DNA of 64,000 bases from IMG/VR virus record IMGVR_UViG_3300025732_000019. One strand, 5' to 3'. Origin of the DNA: a virus. Numbering within the stretch: the first letter of the stretch is position 1; each line of letters opens with the position of its first letter. Below, piece by piece: positions 2,401 to 62,580 of this stretch. Under the pieces are notes generated by a model that was not told the origin of the DNA, did no database searches, and was given only the letters and a program-made list of their open reading frames with translations. The position numbers and the translations under genes are program-made.

Positions 2401-3177
2401 CTACTCAGCCAGCACTTCTTTCGGTCGATACCAGCGATATCGCTTCTCTTGCCATGCTTTCAATGCCACTCGAAACCGACTCACGGGAATCGCGACAATC
2501 GTACTTTCGCCAATCGACCCCACCAGAAATCCAATAATCGTACGCTGCGTCTGAGAGACTAACGCACTGCCGGAGGAACCGCCATTGACACCCGCTTGCT
2601 GCAAGACGAGAGAGTGCTGCCAGTTGATGTCATTCTGCTTGACAGGGCGATCCAGATCCAGACTGGTAACGCTGCCAGAGAAGACTTGTTTGCCAAGACC
2701 GAGCGGTGACGCAATATTCCAATACAATGCAGGGATCACTTCATGCTGCTCATCGCCGAGTGGAATGACAGGCCAGTGTTTGGTCGTCTCCACCTCAAAC
2801 ACGGCGAAGTCTTCGCCACGCGACTGGTATCCGATGAACACCGGTTCCGCAGGCCAAAACGTTTTCTCAGCATGTTCGTCGAACGTGATGAAGAACGGCG
2901 TTTCCGCAGACGCACTTAATTCTTTGTCACGATTGTCGGAGCCGATGCAGTGCGCGGCCGTGACGAATCGATACCCCGTCTTGATGCGCTCGTATGCGGT
3001 CGCCGTACACGCCATGCGCATGCTCCCGGATTGATCCTGGCTATAGAGCAAGCCCACCGCATTCTGAATTGTCGTAATGAACTCGGTATCTGACTGTCGT
3101 GATTGTGCACGACCACTCTGAGTACTCAGGAGCATCACGATCACGGCACATATCGACCATACGCGAAGATGAGACAT
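2401..3177 (-). CDS. secreted trypsin-like (S1) serine protease
   Basis: signal peptide, TAAHC, DFAV, GGSSGS catalytic motifs; AGGAG RBS before ATG 3177. Confidence 0.88.
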   Translation of the reverse strand: MSHLRVWSICAVIVMLLSTQSGRAQSRQSDTEFITTIQNAVGLLYSQDQSGSMRMACTATAYERIKTGYRFVTAAHCIGSDNRDKELSASAETPFFITFDEHAEKTFWPAEPVFIGYQSRGEDFAVFEVETTKHWPVIPLGDEQHEVIPALYWNIASPLGLGKQVFSGSVTSLDLDRPVKQNDINWQHSLVLQQAGVNGGSSGSALVSQTQRTIIGFLVGSIGESTIVAIPVSRFRVALKAWQEKRYRWYRPKEVLAE

Positions 3178-7920: not shown

Positions 7921-8233
7921 ACTCAAAACGGCGATTGATCAGTACCTCGCCGCGTGTGAAGCGGATTACACGCGCATGTCGTATGCTTCCATGCGGCAGA
8001 TTCGGTTTATACTCGATCCCGGTCGGAAGTTCATCCGCATCTGGCGCCAGTTCGATGGCGAGTCGAGTCGGTCGTGCCATGCGTTTGTGGTGCTCACGCA
8101 TCCAAAGTTTCGCACTGGTGACTTGCTGAAGCCCGCGACGTGGAAAGCGCCCGCAATGAACGCGGCGCGTGGGAATGTGCTGGAACCGTCGTCGTATCGT
8201 GCGCAGTGGACGGGCCCCGAGTATTTGCGCTAA
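7889..8233 (+). CDS. conserved T4-like phage early protein
   Basis: GRKFIRI...GDLLKPATWKAPA.NAARGNV...WTGP.YL family motif. Confidence 0.8.
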   Translation: MTNIMTNMTFELKTAIDQYLAACEADYTRMSYASMRQIRFILDPGRKFIRIWRQFDGESSRSCHAFVVLTHPKFRTGDLLKPATWKAPAMNAARGNVLEPSSYRAQWTGPEYLR

Positions 8234-8258
8234 GAGAACCATAGAGGAGTCGAGAGAG

Positions 8259-19765: not shown

Positions 19766-21136
19766 ATGTTCCTGACACAAAAAACGCTGCCTCGTCGCAC
19801 CGTGCTCAAAGGATTGGGGGCCACACTCTCGCTCCCGCTCTTGGATGCGATGATTCCGTTGAATGCATCCGCGGCTCCGACCACCCCCAAAAATCTGATT
19901 GCCATCGAAGTCGTTCACGGCTCCGCCGGCAGCACCACCTACGGGCAGAGCAAAAACCTTTGGTCGCCTGCGACCACCGGCACCGAGTTCGACATCTCTA
20001 AGAACATTCTGTCGTCGTTGCATCCGTATAAAGACCATCTTACCATCATCAGTCAGACGGATGTGCGCATGGCGGAAGCGTTCACTGCACCGGAGATTGG
20101 CGGTGATCACTTCCGTGCGAGTGCGGTGTTCCTGACGCAATCGCATCCGAAACAAACGCAAGGCTCCGATGTATTCGTAGGCACGTCACTTGATCAGATC
20201 TACGCAAAGGCATACGGGCAACAGACGCCGCTGCCGTCGATGCAGTTGTGCATTGAGAATGTCGATCAAGCGGGCGGCTGCTCCTACGGCTATACCTGCA
20301 CCTATACCGATACGATTTCATGGGCGTCCCCGACGGAACCGCTCCCGATGATCCGTGATCCCCGTATGGCGTTCGAAGCGTTGTTTGGGGATGGCGTCGA
20401 TGCGGCGGATCGTCGCGAACGATTGCAGTCACGTCGCAGCCTGCTGGATTTCATGCAGTCGAGTATTCGTCGCATTCAACGCGAGTTGCCCAAATCCGAT
20501 GCGATCCGCTTGGATCAAATGACGACCTATGTGCGAGAACTCGAACGCCGCATTCAGTTGACGGAAGCGCACAATACCAGTGGTGAAGAACGCAGTCTGC
20601 CCAATGCGCCCGTCGGCGTGCCGGATGACTATGAAGAACACATGCGTCTGATGTTCGATCTGCAAGTGGCCGCGTTTATGATGGGCACCACCCATGTGTT
20701 CTCGCTCAAGACGGGACGGGATGCCTCGAACCGCGTCTATCCCAAGAGCGGCGTCTCGGGTGGGTTCCATCCCACGTCACATCATGGCGAAGTGGCGACA
20801 CGCATTGAGGAGTTTGCGAAGATCAACCAGTATCATGTGAGTATGCTGCCGTATCTGCTCGACCGTCTCAAGTCGGTGCCGTCAGCGGGTGGCACGTTAC
20901 TGGATGATACGCTCGTCATCTACGGGTCACCAATGGGGAATCCGAACCTGCACAACCACAAACGCTGCCCGCTCCTGCTGCTCGGTCATGCAGGCGGCAC
21001 CATCAAGGGGCATCGTCACATTCATGCCGCAGACGGCACCCCGATGGCGAATGCAATGTTAGCCGTGCTGCAGAAGTTGGGTGTTGACGTAACGTCTTTC
21101 GGCGACAGTAACGGCGTCATGGATCTCAACGCATAA
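19766..21136 (+). CDS. DUF1552-family protein with twin-arginine N-terminus (host-derived)
   Basis: LPRRTVLKGLGATLSLPLLDAMIP, SLDQIYA, ISW..P..PLP, HPTSHH, LLDDTL..YGS. Confidence 0.9.
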   Translation: MFLTQKTLPRRTVLKGLGATLSLPLLDAMIPLNASAAPTTPKNLIAIEVVHGSAGSTTYGQSKNLWSPATTGTEFDISKNILSSLHPYKDHLTIISQTDVRMAEAFTAPEIGGDHFRASAVFLTQSHPKQTQGSDVFVGTSLDQIYAKAYGQQTPLPSMQLCIENVDQAGGCSYGYTCTYTDTISWASPTEPLPMIRDPRMAFEALFGDGVDAADRRERLQSRRSLLDFMQSSIRRIQRELPKSDAIRLDQMTTYVRELERRIQLTEAHNTSGEERSLPNAPVGVPDDYEEHMRLMFDLQVAAFMMGTTHVFSLKTGRDASNRVYPKSGVSGGFHPTSHHGEVATRIEEFAKINQYHVSMLPYLLDRLKSVPSAGGTLLDDTLVIYGSPMGNPNLHNHKRCPLLLLGHAGGTIKGHRHIHAADGTPMANAMLAVLQKLGVDVTSFGDSNGVMDLNA

Positions 21137-22663: not shown

Positions 22664-23383
22664 ATGCGGTCGTTCAAATCATTCCTAACGCTCGACGAAG
22701 GCGTCTTCGATCCGGGGATTCTGAAAGCCATTTTTATGGCGGGTGGGCCCGGCAGTGGAAAATCCACGAAAGCCGAAGAACTCTTCGGATTGGATGCGGG
22801 GTTCAAGTCGTCATTCAGTCACTACGGCTTGAAGGTGGTCAACAGCGATCACATGTTCGAATATTTGCTGAAGCAAATGCATGTCTCTCCGAAAGATCTC
22901 GCGAACATTGAACGCGAAGACCCCGCTCGATTCCTGCATCTCACTGCCGACCCGCATGGCCCACGTGCACGGGCGAAAGCTTTGGTGGATCGTCAACGAG
23001 AACTCTATATTCAAGGGCGCTTGGGGATGATCATTGATGGCACGGGTGATGACTATGCAAAACTTGCCACCAAGAAACATCATCTGGAAGACTATGGATA
23101 TGATACGGGAATGGTGTTCGTGCACACGTCACTTGAAGTTGCGCTGGAACGGAATCGTCAACGGCCGCGTCAGTTGCCAGACGGATTAGTTACCGATATT
23201 TGGCACAACTGTCAAAAAAACCGTGAGCATTATCAAAAACTGTTTGGAAAGCACTACGTAGAAGTCTACAACACGACCGGTGGCGTTGTGCATCAAGTCG
23301 TACAACGAGCAGTGCAAACCTTTATTCATACGCCCGTGCAGAACCCCAAAGGTCAGGCGTGGGTTCGCAGTCAGACTCTCTAG
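22664..23383 (+). CDS. P-loop kinase (zeta-toxin/PNK-like) with capsid-targeting N-terminus
   Basis: MRSFKSFLTLDE; MAGGPGSGKS; IIDGTG; RNxxRxR; late promoter. Confidence 0.85.
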   Translation: MRSFKSFLTLDEGVFDPGILKAIFMAGGPGSGKSTKAEELFGLDAGFKSSFSHYGLKVVNSDHMFEYLLKQMHVSPKDLANIEREDPARFLHLTADPHGPRARAKALVDRQRELYIQGRLGMIIDGTGDDYAKLATKKHHLEDYGYDTGMVFVHTSLEVALERNRQRPRQLPDGLVTDIWHNCQKNREHYQKLFGKHYVEVYNTTGGVVHQVVQRAVQTFIHTPVQNPKGQAWVRSQTL

Positions 23384-24609: not shown

Positions 24610-24748
24610 TTGACATCCGCATGTATGTGCGGTATACTTGCTTTCGTTGTTGGTGATGCGTTTTGAAATTTCCATTGCATGCCAACGTTGGCAGACGTGG
24701 TACAGAAGCAAAAGAATGCTTGACACCGACTCTGCAATGTGAGATAAT
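24610..24748 (+). promoter_or_regulatory. two tandem sigma70 promoters
   Basis: TTGACA 24610/TATACT 24633 and TTGACA 24720/GATAAT 24743, both with 17-bp spacers. Confidence 0.8.
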
Positions 24749-24812: not shown

Positions 24813-24830
24813 CACAAAGGTAAAATGAAT

Positions 24831-25151
24831 ATGTCGAACACGTCAATGACCGCTACGCAGAAGCTGCTTTCCTACCTCAAGACCGGTCGCGATATTACCG
24901 CTGCACAGGCGCAGAGCCGCTTCGGTATCTCGAACGTTTCTGCTCGGGTGTCGGAGCTTCGCAAGGCGGGTTATTCGGTGTACCTGAACGAGAAGGTCAC
25001 GTCGAACGGCAAGACGATCAAGGCGTACCGCCTCGGTACTCCGACGCGTCGTCAGGTGGCGATCGCGAACTTCGTCGAGAGCAACCCGAACTTCTTCGGC
25101 AAGGCGTCGTGGATCGGTGACCGCGCCGCGCGTCTGATGAAGACCGTGTAG
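24831..25151 (+). CDS. winged-helix DNA-binding protein
   Basis: KLL.YL..G..IT..QA..RFG..N..AR.SELR..GY.VY.N...YRLG.P; highly biased codons. Confidence 0.85.
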   Translation: MSNTSMTATQKLLSYLKTGRDITAAQAQSRFGISNVSARVSELRKAGYSVYLNEKVTSNGKTIKAYRLGTPTRRQVAIANFVESNPNFFGKASWIGDRAARLMKTV

Positions 25152-25155
25152 TCAT

Positions 25156-25187
25156 GACGAGGGGCTTCGGCCCCTCGTTTTGTCTTT
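25156..25187 (+). terminator. Rho-independent terminator
   Basis: GACGAGGGGC-TTCG-GCCCCTCGTT followed by T-rich tail. Confidence 0.85.
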
Positions 25188-25247
25188 GCATCTCTGACGA
25201 GCCCGCAAGGGCGAAACATGCTGTGCACACACCAGCATGTCAGATGC
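25188..25247 (+). ncRNA. hammerhead ribozyme (type I)
   Basis: stem I GCATCT/AGATGC; CTGACGA; stem II GCCC-GCAA-GGGC; GAAA; stem III CATGCTG/CAGCATG; GTC cleavage site at 25241. Confidence 0.92.
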
Positions 25248-25422
25248 TGTTCAAGGGGTGTCGTATCCTCTTGAAGTGATATCGCGTGTTGCATACGAAC
25301 CAACCGTGATACCATAAGCCTCAATGACAGGAACGTTGGTGGTGACAGGCGTCATTGAGTATATAGAAACCATCGACGCCGTGGATGCGAGTGCACTTGC
25401 GCCACGGCGTTATTATTTTTTC
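25242..25422 (+). ncRNA. candidate structured ncRNA released by the hammerhead
   Basis: four hairpins, loop-loop complement TCGTAT/ATACGA, terminal hairpin plus U-tract. Confidence 0.6.
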
Positions 25423-25427
25423 TCCCT

Positions 25428-26273
25428 ATGACGACCGCACACGACTATCTCTCACTCATTGGTGATTGGCAGGATCCACTTCCCACACCACATCTCGAAG
25501 AACACGATGGTGTCTTGGTGGTGCGCGACGATCTGCTCGGCGCAGGCTCTAAAGTGCGCTTTCTCGATTATCTCATCGGGCACGATCCATCGAACACTGA
25601 TGTGCGTGAATGGGTTTTCGGCTCATGCCCTGCGACGGGCTACGCGCAGATCAGTCTCCCCGTTGTCTGCGAACGATACCAGAAAAAGGCCGTGCTCTTC
25701 ATGGCGCAACGGGATCCTTCGAAGTTTCATCCATACCAGCATCGCGGTCTTGCGCTCGGCGCCGATTATCGATGGGTGCCAAACGGTATGCTCAGTGTGA
25801 CGCAGAAACGTGCCCGTGATTATGCGAACGACGACCCGATGCATCGTCGTGTGCTCCCTCTTGGGTTGGAGCATCCCACGGTGATCGCCAGCATCATTCG
25901 TGTTGCTCGGAGTCTTCCTATTGTACCTGACGTGGTGTGGACGGTGGGCTCCAGCGGAACACTCTCGCGTGGTCTACAACTTGCATGGCCAGACGCAGAG
26001 GTGCATGTCGTGTCAGTCGGTCACACCATGACGGATCACGAACGCGGTCGAGCGATTCTCCACCGCTCTCCCTACAAGTTTGATAAACCGGTACGCCCGG
26101 AAGATGCACCTCCGTTTCCGAGTGCGCCGACATATGATGCGAAAGCATGGCGGATACTGCTCGATTGGCGACATACTCGCACACAGACACTGACGGTGCC
26201 ATCATCCGGACGTGAAGGCGCATTAAATATTCTCGCACATCAGAAAATTCTTCTCTGGAATGTAGGAGCGTAA
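25428..26273 (+). CDS. PLP-dependent fold-II enzyme (ACC deaminase/D-Cys desulfhydrase-like)
   Basis: VVRDDLL..GSKVR, VGSSGTLSRG, TYDAKAW, LLWNV. Confidence 0.85.
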   Translation: MTTAHDYLSLIGDWQDPLPTPHLEEHDGVLVVRDDLLGAGSKVRFLDYLIGHDPSNTDVREWVFGSCPATGYAQISLPVVCERYQKKAVLFMAQRDPSKFHPYQHRGLALGADYRWVPNGMLSVTQKRARDYANDDPMHRRVLPLGLEHPTVIASIIRVARSLPIVPDVVWTVGSSGTLSRGLQLAWPDAEVHVVSVGHTMTDHERGRAILHRSPYKFDKPVRPEDAPPFPSAPTYDAKAWRILLDWRHTRTQTLTVPSSGREGALNILAHQKILLWNVGA

Positions 26274-26539
26274 TGCGAAAATACTTCACCCGACCGTGTT
26301 TAGAATTAGCAGGTATTGAATTCGCCAGTTACTTCATCATCACGCTGAATACACGAGCAATTGCCTCGGTGAACTATGTGGGTACATTGGTGACAGATAT
26401 TTGCATTGCGGGATTGACGTTCACCGCCGTCAAGCGAATCGCGGAGGCCTCGACACGCGAAGAACAAGTGATGTACGTCGTAGGTGCGGCGCTTGGTGCG
26501 CTGGCAGCGTTGTGGTGTTCGACATTTATTTTTTTGTGA
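26273..26539 (+). CDS. small membrane protein
   Basis: 2-3 hydrophobic segments, TAATG coupling. Confidence 0.7.
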   Translation: MRKYFTRPCLELAGIEFASYFIITLNTRAIASVNYVGTLVTDICIAGLTFTAVKRIAEASTREEQVMYVVGAALGALAALWCSTFIFL

Positions 26540-28512: not shown

Positions 28513-29217
28513 ATGAGCAATGCCGTTGCAAGTGAAACCTATACGTTGACGGATACGACGCTGAAGATCCTGAAGAACTTTTCCGATATCGCGGAGTCTG
28601 CCTCTTTGGTGGAAGGTGACGTGCAGCGTACCACGCATCCCGCAAAGAGTTTGTTGGCGATTGCGACACTGGATACGCCATGGCCGAAGCAGACACCAAT
28701 CTATCAGTTGCGCGAATTCCTGTCGAACGTGTCTGCGTATGAGAAGCCGACGTTGACGTTCGAAGAGACGCAGTTTGTGATTCGTGGCGCGAATAGCCCG
28801 TCGCACGTGGAGTATCCGTATTCGGATCCGTCTGTCGTCATGGCACCACCGTCGAAGGAATTCGTCACATCGAATCCAAAGGCGAAGTTTACGCTGCCTG
28901 AGCATGCGGTGAAGGAAATCAAGAAGTTCTCCGGCATCAACAATCTGCCGACGATTGCGTTTGAGATCGGGAAGTCTTCAGTGATTGTGAAGCCGCATGA
29001 TGAAAAGAATTCTGCGTCTCGCGTGTATTCGTATCCCGTCAACACGAAGGATATCGAGACGTTGAGCGGCGACGAATTCTCCGCGACGATTCGTCGTGAA
29101 CTGTTTGATCTGATTCTGGATGGCACCTATCATGTGAGCGTGAGTTCGTGGCCGTACATCTACATGGAGCATACGACGCTGCCGATTGCGTATCTGATTG
29201 TGCGTAAAGCGCAGTAA
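28513..29217 (+). CDS. 45: sliding clamp
   Basis: T..ILKNFS, IY.L.EFL, Y.YSDPSV; synteny. Confidence 0.9.
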   Translation: MSNAVASETYTLTDTTLKILKNFSDIAESASLVEGDVQRTTHPAKSLLAIATLDTPWPKQTPIYQLREFLSNVSAYEKPTLTFEETQFVIRGANSPSHVEYPYSDPSVVMAPPSKEFVTSNPKAKFTLPEHAVKEIKKFSGINNLPTIAFEIGKSSVIVKPHDEKNSASRVYSYPVNTKDIETLSGDEFSATIRRELFDLILDGTYHVSVSSWPYIYMEHTTLPIAYLIVRKAQ

Positions 29218-29223
29218 CGTCGC

Positions 29224-29316
29224 GCCCCTGTAGTGTAACGGTGAGCACCCGAGGCTTATACCCTCGCAGCCCTAGATGTGGGCGGAGTCTTGGTTCGAAT
29301 CCAAGCGGGGGTACCA
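29224..29316 (+). tRNA. tRNA-Ile(TAT) with long variable arm
   Basis: GCCCCTG/CGGGGGT; CGAGG-CTTATAC-CCTCG; 22-nt variable region with GCCC/GGGC stem; CCA. Confidence 0.88.
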
Positions 29317-29339
29317 TTTGATGATGAGAGGTGAGTATA

Positions 29340-30284
29340 ATGACGCGTGAGTTCTTTGTGTGGGTCGAGCGGTATCGACCCAAAACACTCTCGGAGTGTA
29401 TTCTTCCGCAATCGATCCTTCAAACGCTCGAAGGCATAAAAGCCATGAGCGATACTCCAAACTTGCTGTTGACGGGGAAACCGGGCACGGGTAAAACCAC
29501 CGTCGCCCGGGCCCTCGCCGCAGATCTTGGCATGGATACGTTAGTCATCAACGCGTCAGACGAAAACGGTATTGACGTGTTGCGCACGAAACTCAAAGAG
29601 TATGCGTCGTCGATGTCGCTGGATGGCAAGCGCAAGATGATTATTCTCGACGAAGCAGATTATTTGAATCCGCAATCGACGCAACCCGCACTGCGCTCGT
29701 TCATGGAAGAGTTCTCTTCCACGACCGTATTTGTGTTGACCTGCAATCACAGCAACCGCATCATTGCTCCGCTGCATTCTCGGTGCTCCGTTGTGAACTT
29801 CACCATTCCGAAGGCAGAACGTGCGAATCTGATGGCGCAGTTCGCAAAACGGGCGCTGGAGATTCTTGATACGGAGCACGTCACATACGACAAAGCTCTC
29901 GTACTGGAAGTGTTGCGTCTGTATTTTCCAGACTTTCGTCGTACCCTGAATGAACTTCAGCGATTCAGCGCGACAGGCGCATTGCAATCTGAGATTCTTG
30001 CACAGATTTCGGATAAAGATGTGATGACGCTGATGAAAGCCTTGAGCAGCGCGAACTTCGTCGCTGTGCGCAAGTGGATTAGCGATCACGAAGATGCGGA
30101 TGAAGCCGCGTTCTATCGCATGCTCTCAGAGACGGTGCCAAAGCATGTGAAGCCTGACGAACTTCCCAATATCATTCTGACGATGGCGGATTATAGCTAT
30201 CGTTCCGCGTTCGCTGCAGACAAGTCGCTCAACATGTTGGCATGTCTCGTTGAGATCATGTCGCATATCCATGTGACTGAGTAG
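29340..30284 (+). CDS. 44: clamp loader ATPase subunit
   Basis: WVERYRP, GKPGTGKTT, DEAD, LHSRC, PDFRR. Confidence 0.95.
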   Translation: MTREFFVWVERYRPKTLSECILPQSILQTLEGIKAMSDTPNLLLTGKPGTGKTTVARALAADLGMDTLVINASDENGIDVLRTKLKEYASSMSLDGKRKMIILDEADYLNPQSTQPALRSFMEEFSSTTVFVLTCNHSNRIIAPLHSRCSVVNFTIPKAERANLMAQFAKRALEILDTEHVTYDKALVLEVLRLYFPDFRRTLNELQRFSATGALQSEILAQISDKDVMTLMKALSSANFVAVRKWISDHEDADEAAFYRMLSETVPKHVKPDELPNIILTMADYSYRSAFAADKSLNMLACLVEIMSHIHVTE

Positions 30285-61627: not shown

Positions 61628-62305
61628 ATGTTTCATCACTATCCTCCACTGTCGCTTCCGACATTGGAGCAGATGAATCTGAAAACCGGTCGCGTTTATC
61701 ACGTGCTCAACGGTGCAGACTCCGGCGTGCATTATCCGTCTATCACACGGGTACTCGGTGCAAAACCCAAACCGCAATTGGAAGCGTGGAAACGGCGCGT
61801 GGGCCATCAAGAAGCACAACGCGTCTCACAAGCTGCGTCTGGGCGTGGTAAGAAACTGCATGCGCTGGTTGAGGAATACGTCGGTAATCATCCCATTGGC
61901 ACAATTGAACCCCACGTCAATGAACTGTGGCAGCATCTATCGCCATGGCTCGATGCGCATATCACGGGTGTCTACGGTCAGGAATGCGATCTCTATTCAC
62001 GCAAACTCGCAGTTGCGGGTCGTACCGACATGATTGCCACCGTTGATGGTGCATTGGCGATTGTCGATTTTAAGCAAGCGAATCGGCCGAAACGCCCCGA
62101 ATATGTTGGCGACTATTACCTTCAAGGTACGTTCTACAGTCTTGCTTTGTATGAACTAACAGGAATGCAAGCAAAACATATTGTTATTCCAGTAGCTTCG
62201 CCAGAAGGATTGCAAGTTTTTGTCACACAACCGAAGCTTCATTACCAAGAACTTTTCAAGCGAATCAAGGATTTTTACATTGATCTGGAGATGCGAAGCG
62301 ATTAG
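61628..62305 (+). CDS. PD-(D/E)xK exonuclease (T4-like)
   Basis: YPSIT, W..RVG, RG...H, AGR.D, IVDFK, Q...Y. Confidence 0.9.
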   Translation: MFHHYPPLSLPTLEQMNLKTGRVYHVLNGADSGVHYPSITRVLGAKPKPQLEAWKRRVGHQEAQRVSQAASGRGKKLHALVEEYVGNHPIGTIEPHVNELWQHLSPWLDAHITGVYGQECDLYSRKLAVAGRTDMIATVDGALAIVDFKQANRPKRPEYVGDYYLQGTFYSLALYELTGMQAKHIVIPVASPEGLQVFVTQPKLHYQELFKRIKDFYIDLEMRSD

Positions 62306-62322
62306 TGTGGTATAATAGATAC

Positions 62323-62580
62323 TAAATGTAGTCAATGAAGTAATCGAGACATGTTTTGGACGCGGCTTCGATGCCGCCACCTCCACCAATAAACCTATGG
62401 GGGGTGAAAGGTTTCGACAGAGCAGAGTTGAGGTTATGGAGACTACCGACACGTCGCTGTCGTTAAACAGAGACACACAGAACTGACAACCAGTTCTCAT
62501 TCGCAGCCTGAACGCTGCTTCTGCTTATGATAAACATAAGCGCGGTCTTGGCGTCGTACCGGGCAACAGAAAGCACGCCA
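62323..62580 (+). ncRNA. ssrA: circularly permuted (two-piece) tmRNA
   Basis: acceptor piece ending CACCTCCACCA (62388) precedes GGGGGTG...TTCGAC (62400); G3:U70; tag (A)DNQFSFAA* 62485-62511; TGTGGTATAAT promoter. Confidence 0.9.

Follow-up and report, generated by a model that had tools for sequence, protein, structure and literature searches.

A candidate ribozyme-released structured RNA behind an HTH_39 gene of uncultured T4-like phages

Thousands of hammerhead, twister and pistol ribozymes are present in phage DNA, and the roles of self-cleaving ribozymes in bacteria and phages have been described as 'largely elusive' (PMC6765202). The question of what such a cut is for is raised by a locus of the virus record IMGVR_UViG_3300025732_000019 (IMG/VR), of which a stretch of 64,000 nucleotides (nt), hereafter called the window, was analysed. 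A hammerhead ribozyme stands there between the terminator of a winged helix-turn-helix (wHTH) gene and a segment in which a first-pass annotation, made from the sequence alone, had recognised no credible open reading frame (ORF). We find that the segment following the predicted cut corresponds to a conserved, knotted RNA of about 180 nt. This RNA represents an undescribed structured family, and the T4-like phages concerned form a poorly known clade. We suggest, with slightly more confidence than doubt, that this RNA is released by the ribozyme from the early transcript of the wHTH gene, bounded by a terminator, stable and active in trans. The two elements concerned are the following.

25188-25247, + strand: type I hammerhead ribozyme, recognised by core, stems, fold, chance test and stem covariation
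25242-25422, + strand: structured non-coding RNA of about 180 nt, from the predicted cleavage site to the U-tract of terminator T2

The hammerhead has the conserved core of its class, and both ends of the motif lie within stem I, which is open and counts 6 base pairs (bp; 25188-25193 / 25242-25247). The box CUGACGA occupies 25194-25200 and GAA 25213-25215; stem II has 4 bp (25201-25204 / 25209-25212) and a GCAA loop, and stem III has 7 bp and a 9-nt loop (25217-25223 / 25233-25239). With A15.1 at A25216, U16.1 at U25240 and C17 at 25241, the cleavable triplet G-U-C ends at 25241, and the cut is predicted after C25241, so that the upstream product would end in a 2',3'-cyclic phosphate and A25242 would bear a 5'-OH. 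The unconstrained minimum free energy fold of 25186-25250 consists of exactly the three hammerhead stems (-25.2 kcal/mol, z = -2.3). A descriptor written for this analysis matched one site in the window when both strands were scanned; in 200 composition-matched, first-order Markov randomisations, loose settings gave a chance rate of 0.01 per 64 kb, and no site reached the stem quality seen here. Hammerheads occupy the equivalent position in related loci (labelled L001 and so on), namely L001, L084-L089, L092-L094, L335 and L337. In an alignment of seven copies (the window and six related metagenomic loci), 98.8% of the stem cells are paired, against 79% in shuffles and 23-38% with slid partners, and 7 of the 12 pairs change on both sides. 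The complete ribozyme with three intact stems and a predicted cut at 25241, as described by the first-pass annotation, is thus borne out by core, fold and covariation.

Recognition by the Rfam hammerhead models is only partial. Rfam 15 was run on the window and on 17 related loci, both with the gathering cut-off and with permissive E-values, and only hammerhead and pistol matched. The window copy gave no match at the gathering score and, in the permissive run, only a partial match to the type III model (Hammerhead_3, 21 bits). Homologous hammerheads with a short stem III reached 30 bits against the Hammerhead_1 cut-off of 34, and we attribute the miss of the window copy to its long stem III. 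A gathering threshold is a property of one model and not a defining property of hammerhead ribozymes.

The segment downstream of the cut folds well beyond expectation (25242-25422, z = -3.5 to -4.2), with the four hairpins and the U-tract located where they had been proposed. It is non-coding, since the alignment with its closest homologue L001 (84% identity) contains indels of 1 and 4 nt which break the frame. Its parts are listed below.

25250-25275, + strand: hairpin P1, 9 bp, with loop L1 at 25259-25266
25276-25315, + strand: hairpin P2/P2a, with P2 at 25280-25286/25305-25311, P2a at 25288-25291/25301-25304 and loop L2a at 25292-25300
25320-25359, + strand: P3 (25320-25328 / 25351-25359), which encloses a conserved AGGAAC bulge, P3a and L3
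25335-25337 / 25344-25346, + strand: P3a, inside P3, with loop L3 at 25338-25343
25261-25298, + strand: loop-loop kiss, UCGUAU (25261-25266) with AUACGA (25293-25298)
25338-25374, + strand: pseudoknot, L3 (25338-25343) with the 3' tail (25369-25374)
25375-25422, + strand: intrinsic terminator T2, a 16-bp interrupted stem (25375-25411) and then a U-tract; 3' end of the RNA

A covariance model of the 3' domain (R1) found this RNA in 11 distinct sequences, the window and ten others (E from 1e-6 to 6e-15), all from uncultured T4-like phages. Branch A contains the window and L001, branch B contains L084/L086, L088 and L092, branch C contains L339, L351, L347/L345, L346 and L475, and L335 stands apart. 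The conservation of the downstream segment, on which the first-pass annotation had made its case depend, is therefore established. From the predicted cut to the U-tract, the window copy is 180 nt long. The copies of its relatives span 181-251 nt and fold individually into the same hairpin set (z = -1.9 to -4.6). The common plan runs, from 5' to 3', through a leader of 8-13 nt between cut and P1, P1 itself, a spacer of 9-12 nt, P2a inside P2, an AGRCC linker, P3 with an AGGAAC-type bulge and a short P3a, an A/U-rich UAGRAAC tail and a strong terminator hairpin. The unpaired bases of linker, bulge and tail are highly conserved, and the 3' strand of the pseudoknot lies 0-7 nt from the terminator. 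In the window the T2 hairpin reaches -26.7 kcal/mol (z = -5.3). Ten of the 11 distinct sequences have a GC-rich hairpin plus U-tract behind the tail; the eleventh, L475, has a terminator-like hairpin without a U-run.

The family was delimited through several anchors, since homologous loci were reached via the 281-amino-acid (aa) ORF that follows the RNA in the window, via wHTH homologues and their contigs, via a DNA pattern of the 3' domain and via an 88-aa protein. The 281-aa ORF led to 80 viral loci, L001 alone of which has the RNA, so the RNA is not tied to that ORF. The DNA pattern of loop 3 gave one true match and one chance match (L083), and the 88-aa protein together with the branch C wHTH added one new member (L475) and one uninformative locus (L483). 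The hammerhead core pattern was too general as a search, with matches in at least 120 viral and at least 120 metagenomic contigs. R1 found no copy in other hammerhead-bearing loci among the 240 listed viral and metagenome matches, nor in cellular genomes among 120 loci matching the 3'-domain DNA pattern; the RNA is thus a small phage-restricted family and no general companion of hammerheads. Rfam 15 gave no credible match over the RNA body (window at E up to 10, relatives at E up to 1), the best match in the region being ES205, to the terminator only, with 25 bits against a cut-off of 86. A nucleotide search of cultured phages with the region gave no match; in Methylophilales phage Melnitz and Stenotrophomonas phage DLP_6, the nearest cultured relatives by protein searches, a wHTH homologue is followed by only 55-74 nt, with no ribozyme and no RNA.

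Compensatory changes support most of the fold. In P3, all eight pairs change on both sides and the helix was recovered unguided by MAFFT and RNAalifold; over the 3' domain, 90.3% of the cells are paired, against 69.8% in shuffles and 37-48% with slid partners. P1 and P2a are perfect hairpins of 4-9 bp in every lineage checked, and together they have 10 pairs that change on both sides in a model-fitted alignment of branches B and C, although the P1 columns of branch B are shifted by one there. The branches are not alike in P2: P2 and P2a are coaxial in branch A, whereas branches B and C form a three-way junction that includes an additional P2b. The assignment of several helices is uncertain in P2 and in L335. 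A covariance model of the 5' domain (R2) recognised neither branch A nor L335, so the homology of P1 and P2a across branches is judged from their position and architecture rather than from one alignment; what matches the 5' domain of branch A to the others is this architecture together with the covarying kiss.

The complementarity of loops 1 and 2 (UCGUAU/AUACGA), first noticed in the window alone, is indeed replaced by other complementary loops in the relatives: GUCGU/ACGAC, UAGUC/GACUA, UUGUC/GACAA, GUAGUC/GACUAC, AGAAU/AUUCU, GGAG/CUCC, AGACU/AGUCU and GGAGU/ACUCC. This kiss covaries in nine lineages, whose own loops share 4-6 complementary nt (mean 5.1) compared with 2.8 for loops taken across lineages, and the observed total was reached by none of 10000 loop shuffles; the kiss partner of L335 is ambiguous. 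The pseudoknot pairs GGUGGU with ACCAUC in the window and CCGU with ACGG, plus extensions, in others. Its four core pairs are present in every one of the 11 distinct sequences, with covariation in two; the pairs that extend this core were read by eye. Covariation of the downstream RNA, which had been proposed as a check, is accordingly present in P1, P2a, P3 and the kiss. These changes also bear on whether the block is kept for a reason at the DNA level, such as a protein binding site or an origin, or whether the hammerhead is a non-functional relic. Damaged ribozyme cores in some lineages would fit such a relic; yet the compensating changes preserve RNA pairing of one strand, and G-U and crossed pairings, which are meaningless in duplex DNA, exclude the DNA-level reading. 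We give this explanation very little credence.

A second ribozyme class bears on what the cut is for. In branch C, just 5' of the same RNA, the place of the hammerhead is taken by a pistol ribozyme (Rfam RF02679, a model that includes P1, the pseudoknot sequence and P3): L347 (63 bits) and L339 (43.8) exceed the cut-off of 34.5, and L351 (34.1) falls just under it. No hammerhead is present in these pistol-bearing loci, and the pistol occurs in relatives only, not in the window. In pistol ribozymes the cleaved strand is the 3' part, distant in primary sequence from P1 and the pseudoknot (PMC4604425), and the type I hammerhead cuts six nucleotides before the 3' end of its motif. The catalytic body thus lies 5' of the cut in both classes, so that the released RNA would keep only the short leader. 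As far as sequence allows one to judge, hammerhead and pistol are interchangeable before the same RNA and in the same orientation. Because two unrelated self-cleaving motifs occupy the same spot, the exchange suggests that the role of the cut is to form the 5' end of the RNA of about 180 nt, and we regard this as the strongest argument for such a role. A possible pistol remnant 5' of the branch B hammerhead, a hairpin with a pistol-like P1 loop, was considered separately and rejected, the matching pseudoknot strand being missing.

The company of self-cleaving ribozymes raises the further possibility that the RNA is itself catalytic, as a new ribozyme class, or is circularised or ligated through the ribozyme-made 5'-OH. 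Indeed, new classes were discovered as conserved structures beside hammerheads and twisters (PMC6765202, PMC4604425). Moreover, 2 kb upstream the window encodes a P-loop kinase that weakly resembles polynucleotide kinases, and an RtcB gene lies near the wHTH homologue of L486. The RNA matches neither hatchet, twister-sister nor any other ribozyme model, though; L486 lacks the RNA, and the kinase is linked by proximity only. We consider this explanation very unlikely.

If the cut serves the RNA, the transcript from which it would be cut has to be identified, and the gene order points upstream. The elements flanking ribozyme and RNA in the window are as follows.

24610-24638 and 24720-24748, + strand: two sigma-70-like promoters, 11/12 consensus positions each, the second with a TG extended -10
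24825-25151, + strand: wHTH gene, 108 aa (Pfam HTH_39, PF14090, E = 4e-8)
25156-25187, + strand: intrinsic terminator T1 of the wHTH gene, with a hairpin at 25156-25179 (10-bp stem, UUCG loop) and a U-rich tail
25428-26539, + strand: context genes, the 281-aa ORF and then an 88-aa membrane protein gene

The hammerhead starts at 25188, directly after the hairpin and U-rich tail of T1, as had been stated. An HTH_39 gene lies upstream of ribozyme and RNA in every complete locus, the pistol loci included, where the branch C protein is 34-38% identical to that of the window; in L339, one ORF and another structured segment lie in between. The search with the wHTH protein gave 32 homologues. The gene after the RNA varies: it is the 281-aa ORF (similar to a PHROG 'threonine dehydratase', without Pfam match) in the window and L001, the 88-aa membrane protein gene in branch B, L351 and L475, and a 2-oxoglutarate-iron oxygenase, S-adenosylmethionine lyase or nucleoside deoxyribosyltransferase gene in other relatives. 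The 281-aa ORF looks like an insertion, since the 88-aa gene of the window follows it. In most relatives, those of branches B and C among them, the motif TGnTATACT stands between the terminator and the next ATG, 6-7 nt before the latter; it was seen after the terminator in L086 (1538-1558), L088, L092, L335, L336 and L347, and the first wHTH promoter of the window likewise has TATACT as its -10 hexamer. The motif looks like a separate promoter of the next gene, in which case the RNA would close the wHTH unit rather than open the following one. This arrangement suggests that the phage clade uses extended -10 promoters making leaderless or near-leaderless mRNAs. Separately, TATACT followed by 5-8 nt and ATG was counted 4 times in the window, with 0.93 expected.

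The same gene order can be set against ordinary ribozyme punctuation of a polycistronic transcript, in which the hammerhead would be an insulator or stability control and the structured segment a 5' untranslated region (UTR). Hammerheads between phage genes are common, as the wide occurrence of the core pattern attests, and they have been proposed as processors of polycistronic RNAs (PMC3088659, PMC6765202); in L337, moreover, a hammerhead (1910-1983) with a covarying U3-A8 core pair lies directly 5' of a 102-aa ORF, the ribozyme being present without the structured RNA. At the loci that bear the RNA, however, a strong terminator separates it from the next ORF, conserved tertiary pairings would not be needed in a plain UTR, and the RNA tracks the upstream and not the downstream gene. 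Punctuation of this kind is in our opinion quite unlikely.

We therefore return to release from the wHTH transcript, which would proceed as follows. The wHTH early gene and the segment behind it would form one transcription unit started from the wHTH promoters; both of these, which are consensus matches only, would drive the wHTH gene and, through read-through, the ribozyme and the RNA. T1 must be read through for the RNA to be made, and some polymerases would pass this weak stop and transcribe the hammerhead; the hairpin of L001 that matches T1 has no U-tract. The nascent transcript would cut itself after C25241, so that the wHTH mRNA would retain the ribozyme body and end in a 2',3'-cyclic phosphate, and a 5'-OH RNA of about 180 nt, with its 3' end at T2, would be freed. 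This RNA would be compact, with the kiss locking P1 and P2a together and P3 tied to the 3' tail through the pseudoknot, stacked beside the terminator hairpin. RNAs with a 5'-OH are poor substrates for nucleases that depend on a 5'-monophosphate, so the end made by the cut would favour stability. The product would then be a discrete, stable RNA acting in trans early in infection, most likely by binding a protein or another ligand.

Several observations weigh against this scheme. The evidence is comparative throughout, and the family is small, with its 11 distinct sequences in roughly three deep branches; some of the covariation rests on few deep splits, and that of the pseudoknot on a single one, branch A versus the rest. 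No tertiary stabilising contact was identified in the hammerhead. The ribozyme core is altered or missing in three lineages, L092, L335 and L339. In L092-L094, G replaces U at 16.1 (GGC for GUC; L092 2915-2961) before an intact downstream RNA; we expect this change to impair cleavage, and it is probably no sequencing error, because the associated protein cluster occurs on at least 12 contigs. The core of L335 has U15.1-A16.1; this type and the U3-A8 type seen in L337 are natural active hammerhead variants, the former weakly active (Perreault et al. 2011, PMC3088659). In L339, the pistol lies further upstream and only a decayed hammerhead-like remnant directly precedes the RNA. Cleavage thus seems dispensable in some lineages, a caveat to the earlier proposal that the ribozyme generates the 5' end, which is itself strengthened by the pistol at the same place. 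The predicted structure of the wHTH protein (mean predicted local distance difference test score, pLDDT, 74) is a generic PadR/MarR/TFE-like winged helix, with Foldseek E no better than 0.01; it looks like an ordinary DNA-binding regulator, and the model gives no clue to RNA binding. Finally, the window and L001 have no TGnTATACT or other promoter-like motif in the interval from T2 to the 281-aa ORF, and in the window this ORF starts 6 nt after the U-tract, a layout that resembles a leader with an attenuator.

The last point leads to the possibility that the RNA is a leader acting in cis, either a riboswitch or attenuator which sets read-through of T2 or a modifier of the polymerase of the put or EAR kind, and that the ribozyme merely trims it. 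The fold has the complexity of an aptamer, with its highly conserved unpaired bases, the pseudoknot strand closely adjoins the terminator, and the RNA shares with terminating riboswitches a conserved structured body followed directly by an intrinsic terminator; in the window and L001, the next ORF begins 6-12 nt after T2 without a promoter of its own. A terminating riboswitch would nevertheless be expected before a consistent class of genes, whereas at least five unrelated gene families are represented downstream of this RNA. Inspection by eye found no antiterminator pairing conserved across lineages, the candidates of single lineages not being kept elsewhere. Most relatives carry the promoter-like TGnTATACT between terminator and ATG, and a cis leader leaves the selection for an upstream ribozyme, as revealed by the exchange of classes, unexplained. 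We judge a cis-acting leader improbable, though deserving a serious hearing, and the RNA appears to be no leader of the next gene.

Within the release of an RNA acting in trans, a bolder proposal can be made. The RNA might be the working part of a new phage RNA system (ligand-sensing, catalytic or a partner of the wHTH protein) that requires the exact 5'-OH. We advance this tentatively and think it rather unlikely as it stands; it would explain why two unrelated ribozymes are found at one spot. If true, it would give phage hammerhead and pistol ribozymes their first defined biological job, the maturation of a specific non-coding RNA.

The neighbourhood of the wHTH gene contains other candidate RNAs. 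In branch C, a conserved block of about 150 nt, which looks structured and has no Rfam match, lies between the wHTH stop and the pistol in three lineages (L351 at about 8080-8234 on the - strand, L347 at 1-150 and L346 at about 2450-2600); as it would be the 5' cleavage product, branch C units may encode two RNAs split by a ribozyme. Another conserved non-coding element, of about 170 nt and without Rfam match, stands between the wHTH gene and the hammerhead in L084 (about 2905-3085), L085 and L087 and is lacking in L086, and an element related to it follows the wHTH gene in L339 (about 2020-2170). Structured RNAs thus seem to accumulate behind this wHTH gene. RtcB joins cyclic-phosphate and 5'-OH ends, and an RtcB RNA ligase gene (L486 1-194) lies 1 kb upstream of a wHTH homologue on a 92-kb sediment contig, at a locus with no ribozyme and no copy of the RNA. 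The P-loop kinase of the window (22664-23383; AAA_33 or zeta-toxin-like, with weak similarity to a PHROG polynucleotide kinase) is conserved upstream in branch B as well; it may be relevant to RNAs with 5'-OH ends, or else to the modification of nucleotides or DNA.

The window derives from an uncultured T4-like phage, with sliding clamp, clamp loader and RegA-like genes at 28.5-31 kb. Its best cultured match is Methylophilales phage Melnitz (Kyanoviridae), whose clamp loader is 50% identical, and Stenotrophomonas phage DLP_6 is also near. The window carries 15 tRNA genes, mostly clustered at 27-1605, and a permuted (two-piece) transfer-messenger RNA (tmRNA) gene at 62276-62580 (Rfam tmRNA_permuted 91.7 bits, alpha_tmRNA 51.8 bits); carried by a phage, such a gene may point to the group of its host. 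The sliding-clamp-like gene (28513-29217) is separated from the clamp loader gene (29331-30284) by a tRNA gene that has a long extra arm (29224-29313). At 19766-21136, a 456-aa ORF begins with an apparent twin-arginine signal, read by eye, and seems to resemble a cellular DUF1552-type protein, an unusual cargo for a T4-like phage.

How, then, does this locus compare with known systems? The hammerhead of the window adds one more member to a well-known class, and its setting is familiar too. It shares the core, the three stems, the open stem I, the GUC triplet and the intergenic site of the type I hammerheads of phages and prophages (RF00163, clan CL00010; PMC3088659), but differs from them in its long stem III (7 bp with a 9-nt loop), which places it below the Rfam threshold, and in being tied to one downstream RNA family and swapped for another class in relatives. 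The pistol of those relatives (RF02679; Harris et al. 2015, PMC4604425) is, like others, phage-associated and cut near the 3' end of its motif, and it stands at the place of the hammerhead; the literature gives pistol no known biological role, whereas here its cut would yield a defined product downstream.

Non-cleaving conserved RNAs beside self-cleaving ribozymes, such as the Drum motif, are comparable in kind. Such structures of unknown function have been described (PMC6765202, citing Weinberg et al. 2015, 2017); they too are structured, in phage-like contexts and adjacent to a ribozyme, while the present RNA differs in the fixed order of ribozyme, RNA and terminator, in its linkage to HTH_39 and in having no match in Rfam 15. 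The small RNAs (sRNAs) derived from bacterial 3' UTRs, which are cut from mRNA by RNase E, leaving a 5'-monophosphate, likewise come from the tail of a protein-coding transcript and end in an intrinsic terminator after an A/U-rich stretch. The present RNA has, by contrast, a built-in ribozyme, a 5'-OH as its predicted end and far more structure than sRNAs that act by seed pairing, and the window has a first terminator ahead of the ribozyme. HDV-like (hepatitis delta virus-like) 'theta' ribozymes, which assist the maturation of phage tRNAs, are another case of a self-cleaving ribozyme trimming a structured phage RNA; here, however, the product is no tRNA, and the hammerhead or pistol is located 5' of it. 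What differs from all of these is the package, namely an apparently undescribed RNA family with two tertiary pairings, which would be bounded by a ribozyme and a terminator and is placed in a fixed position 3' of an HTH_39 early gene.

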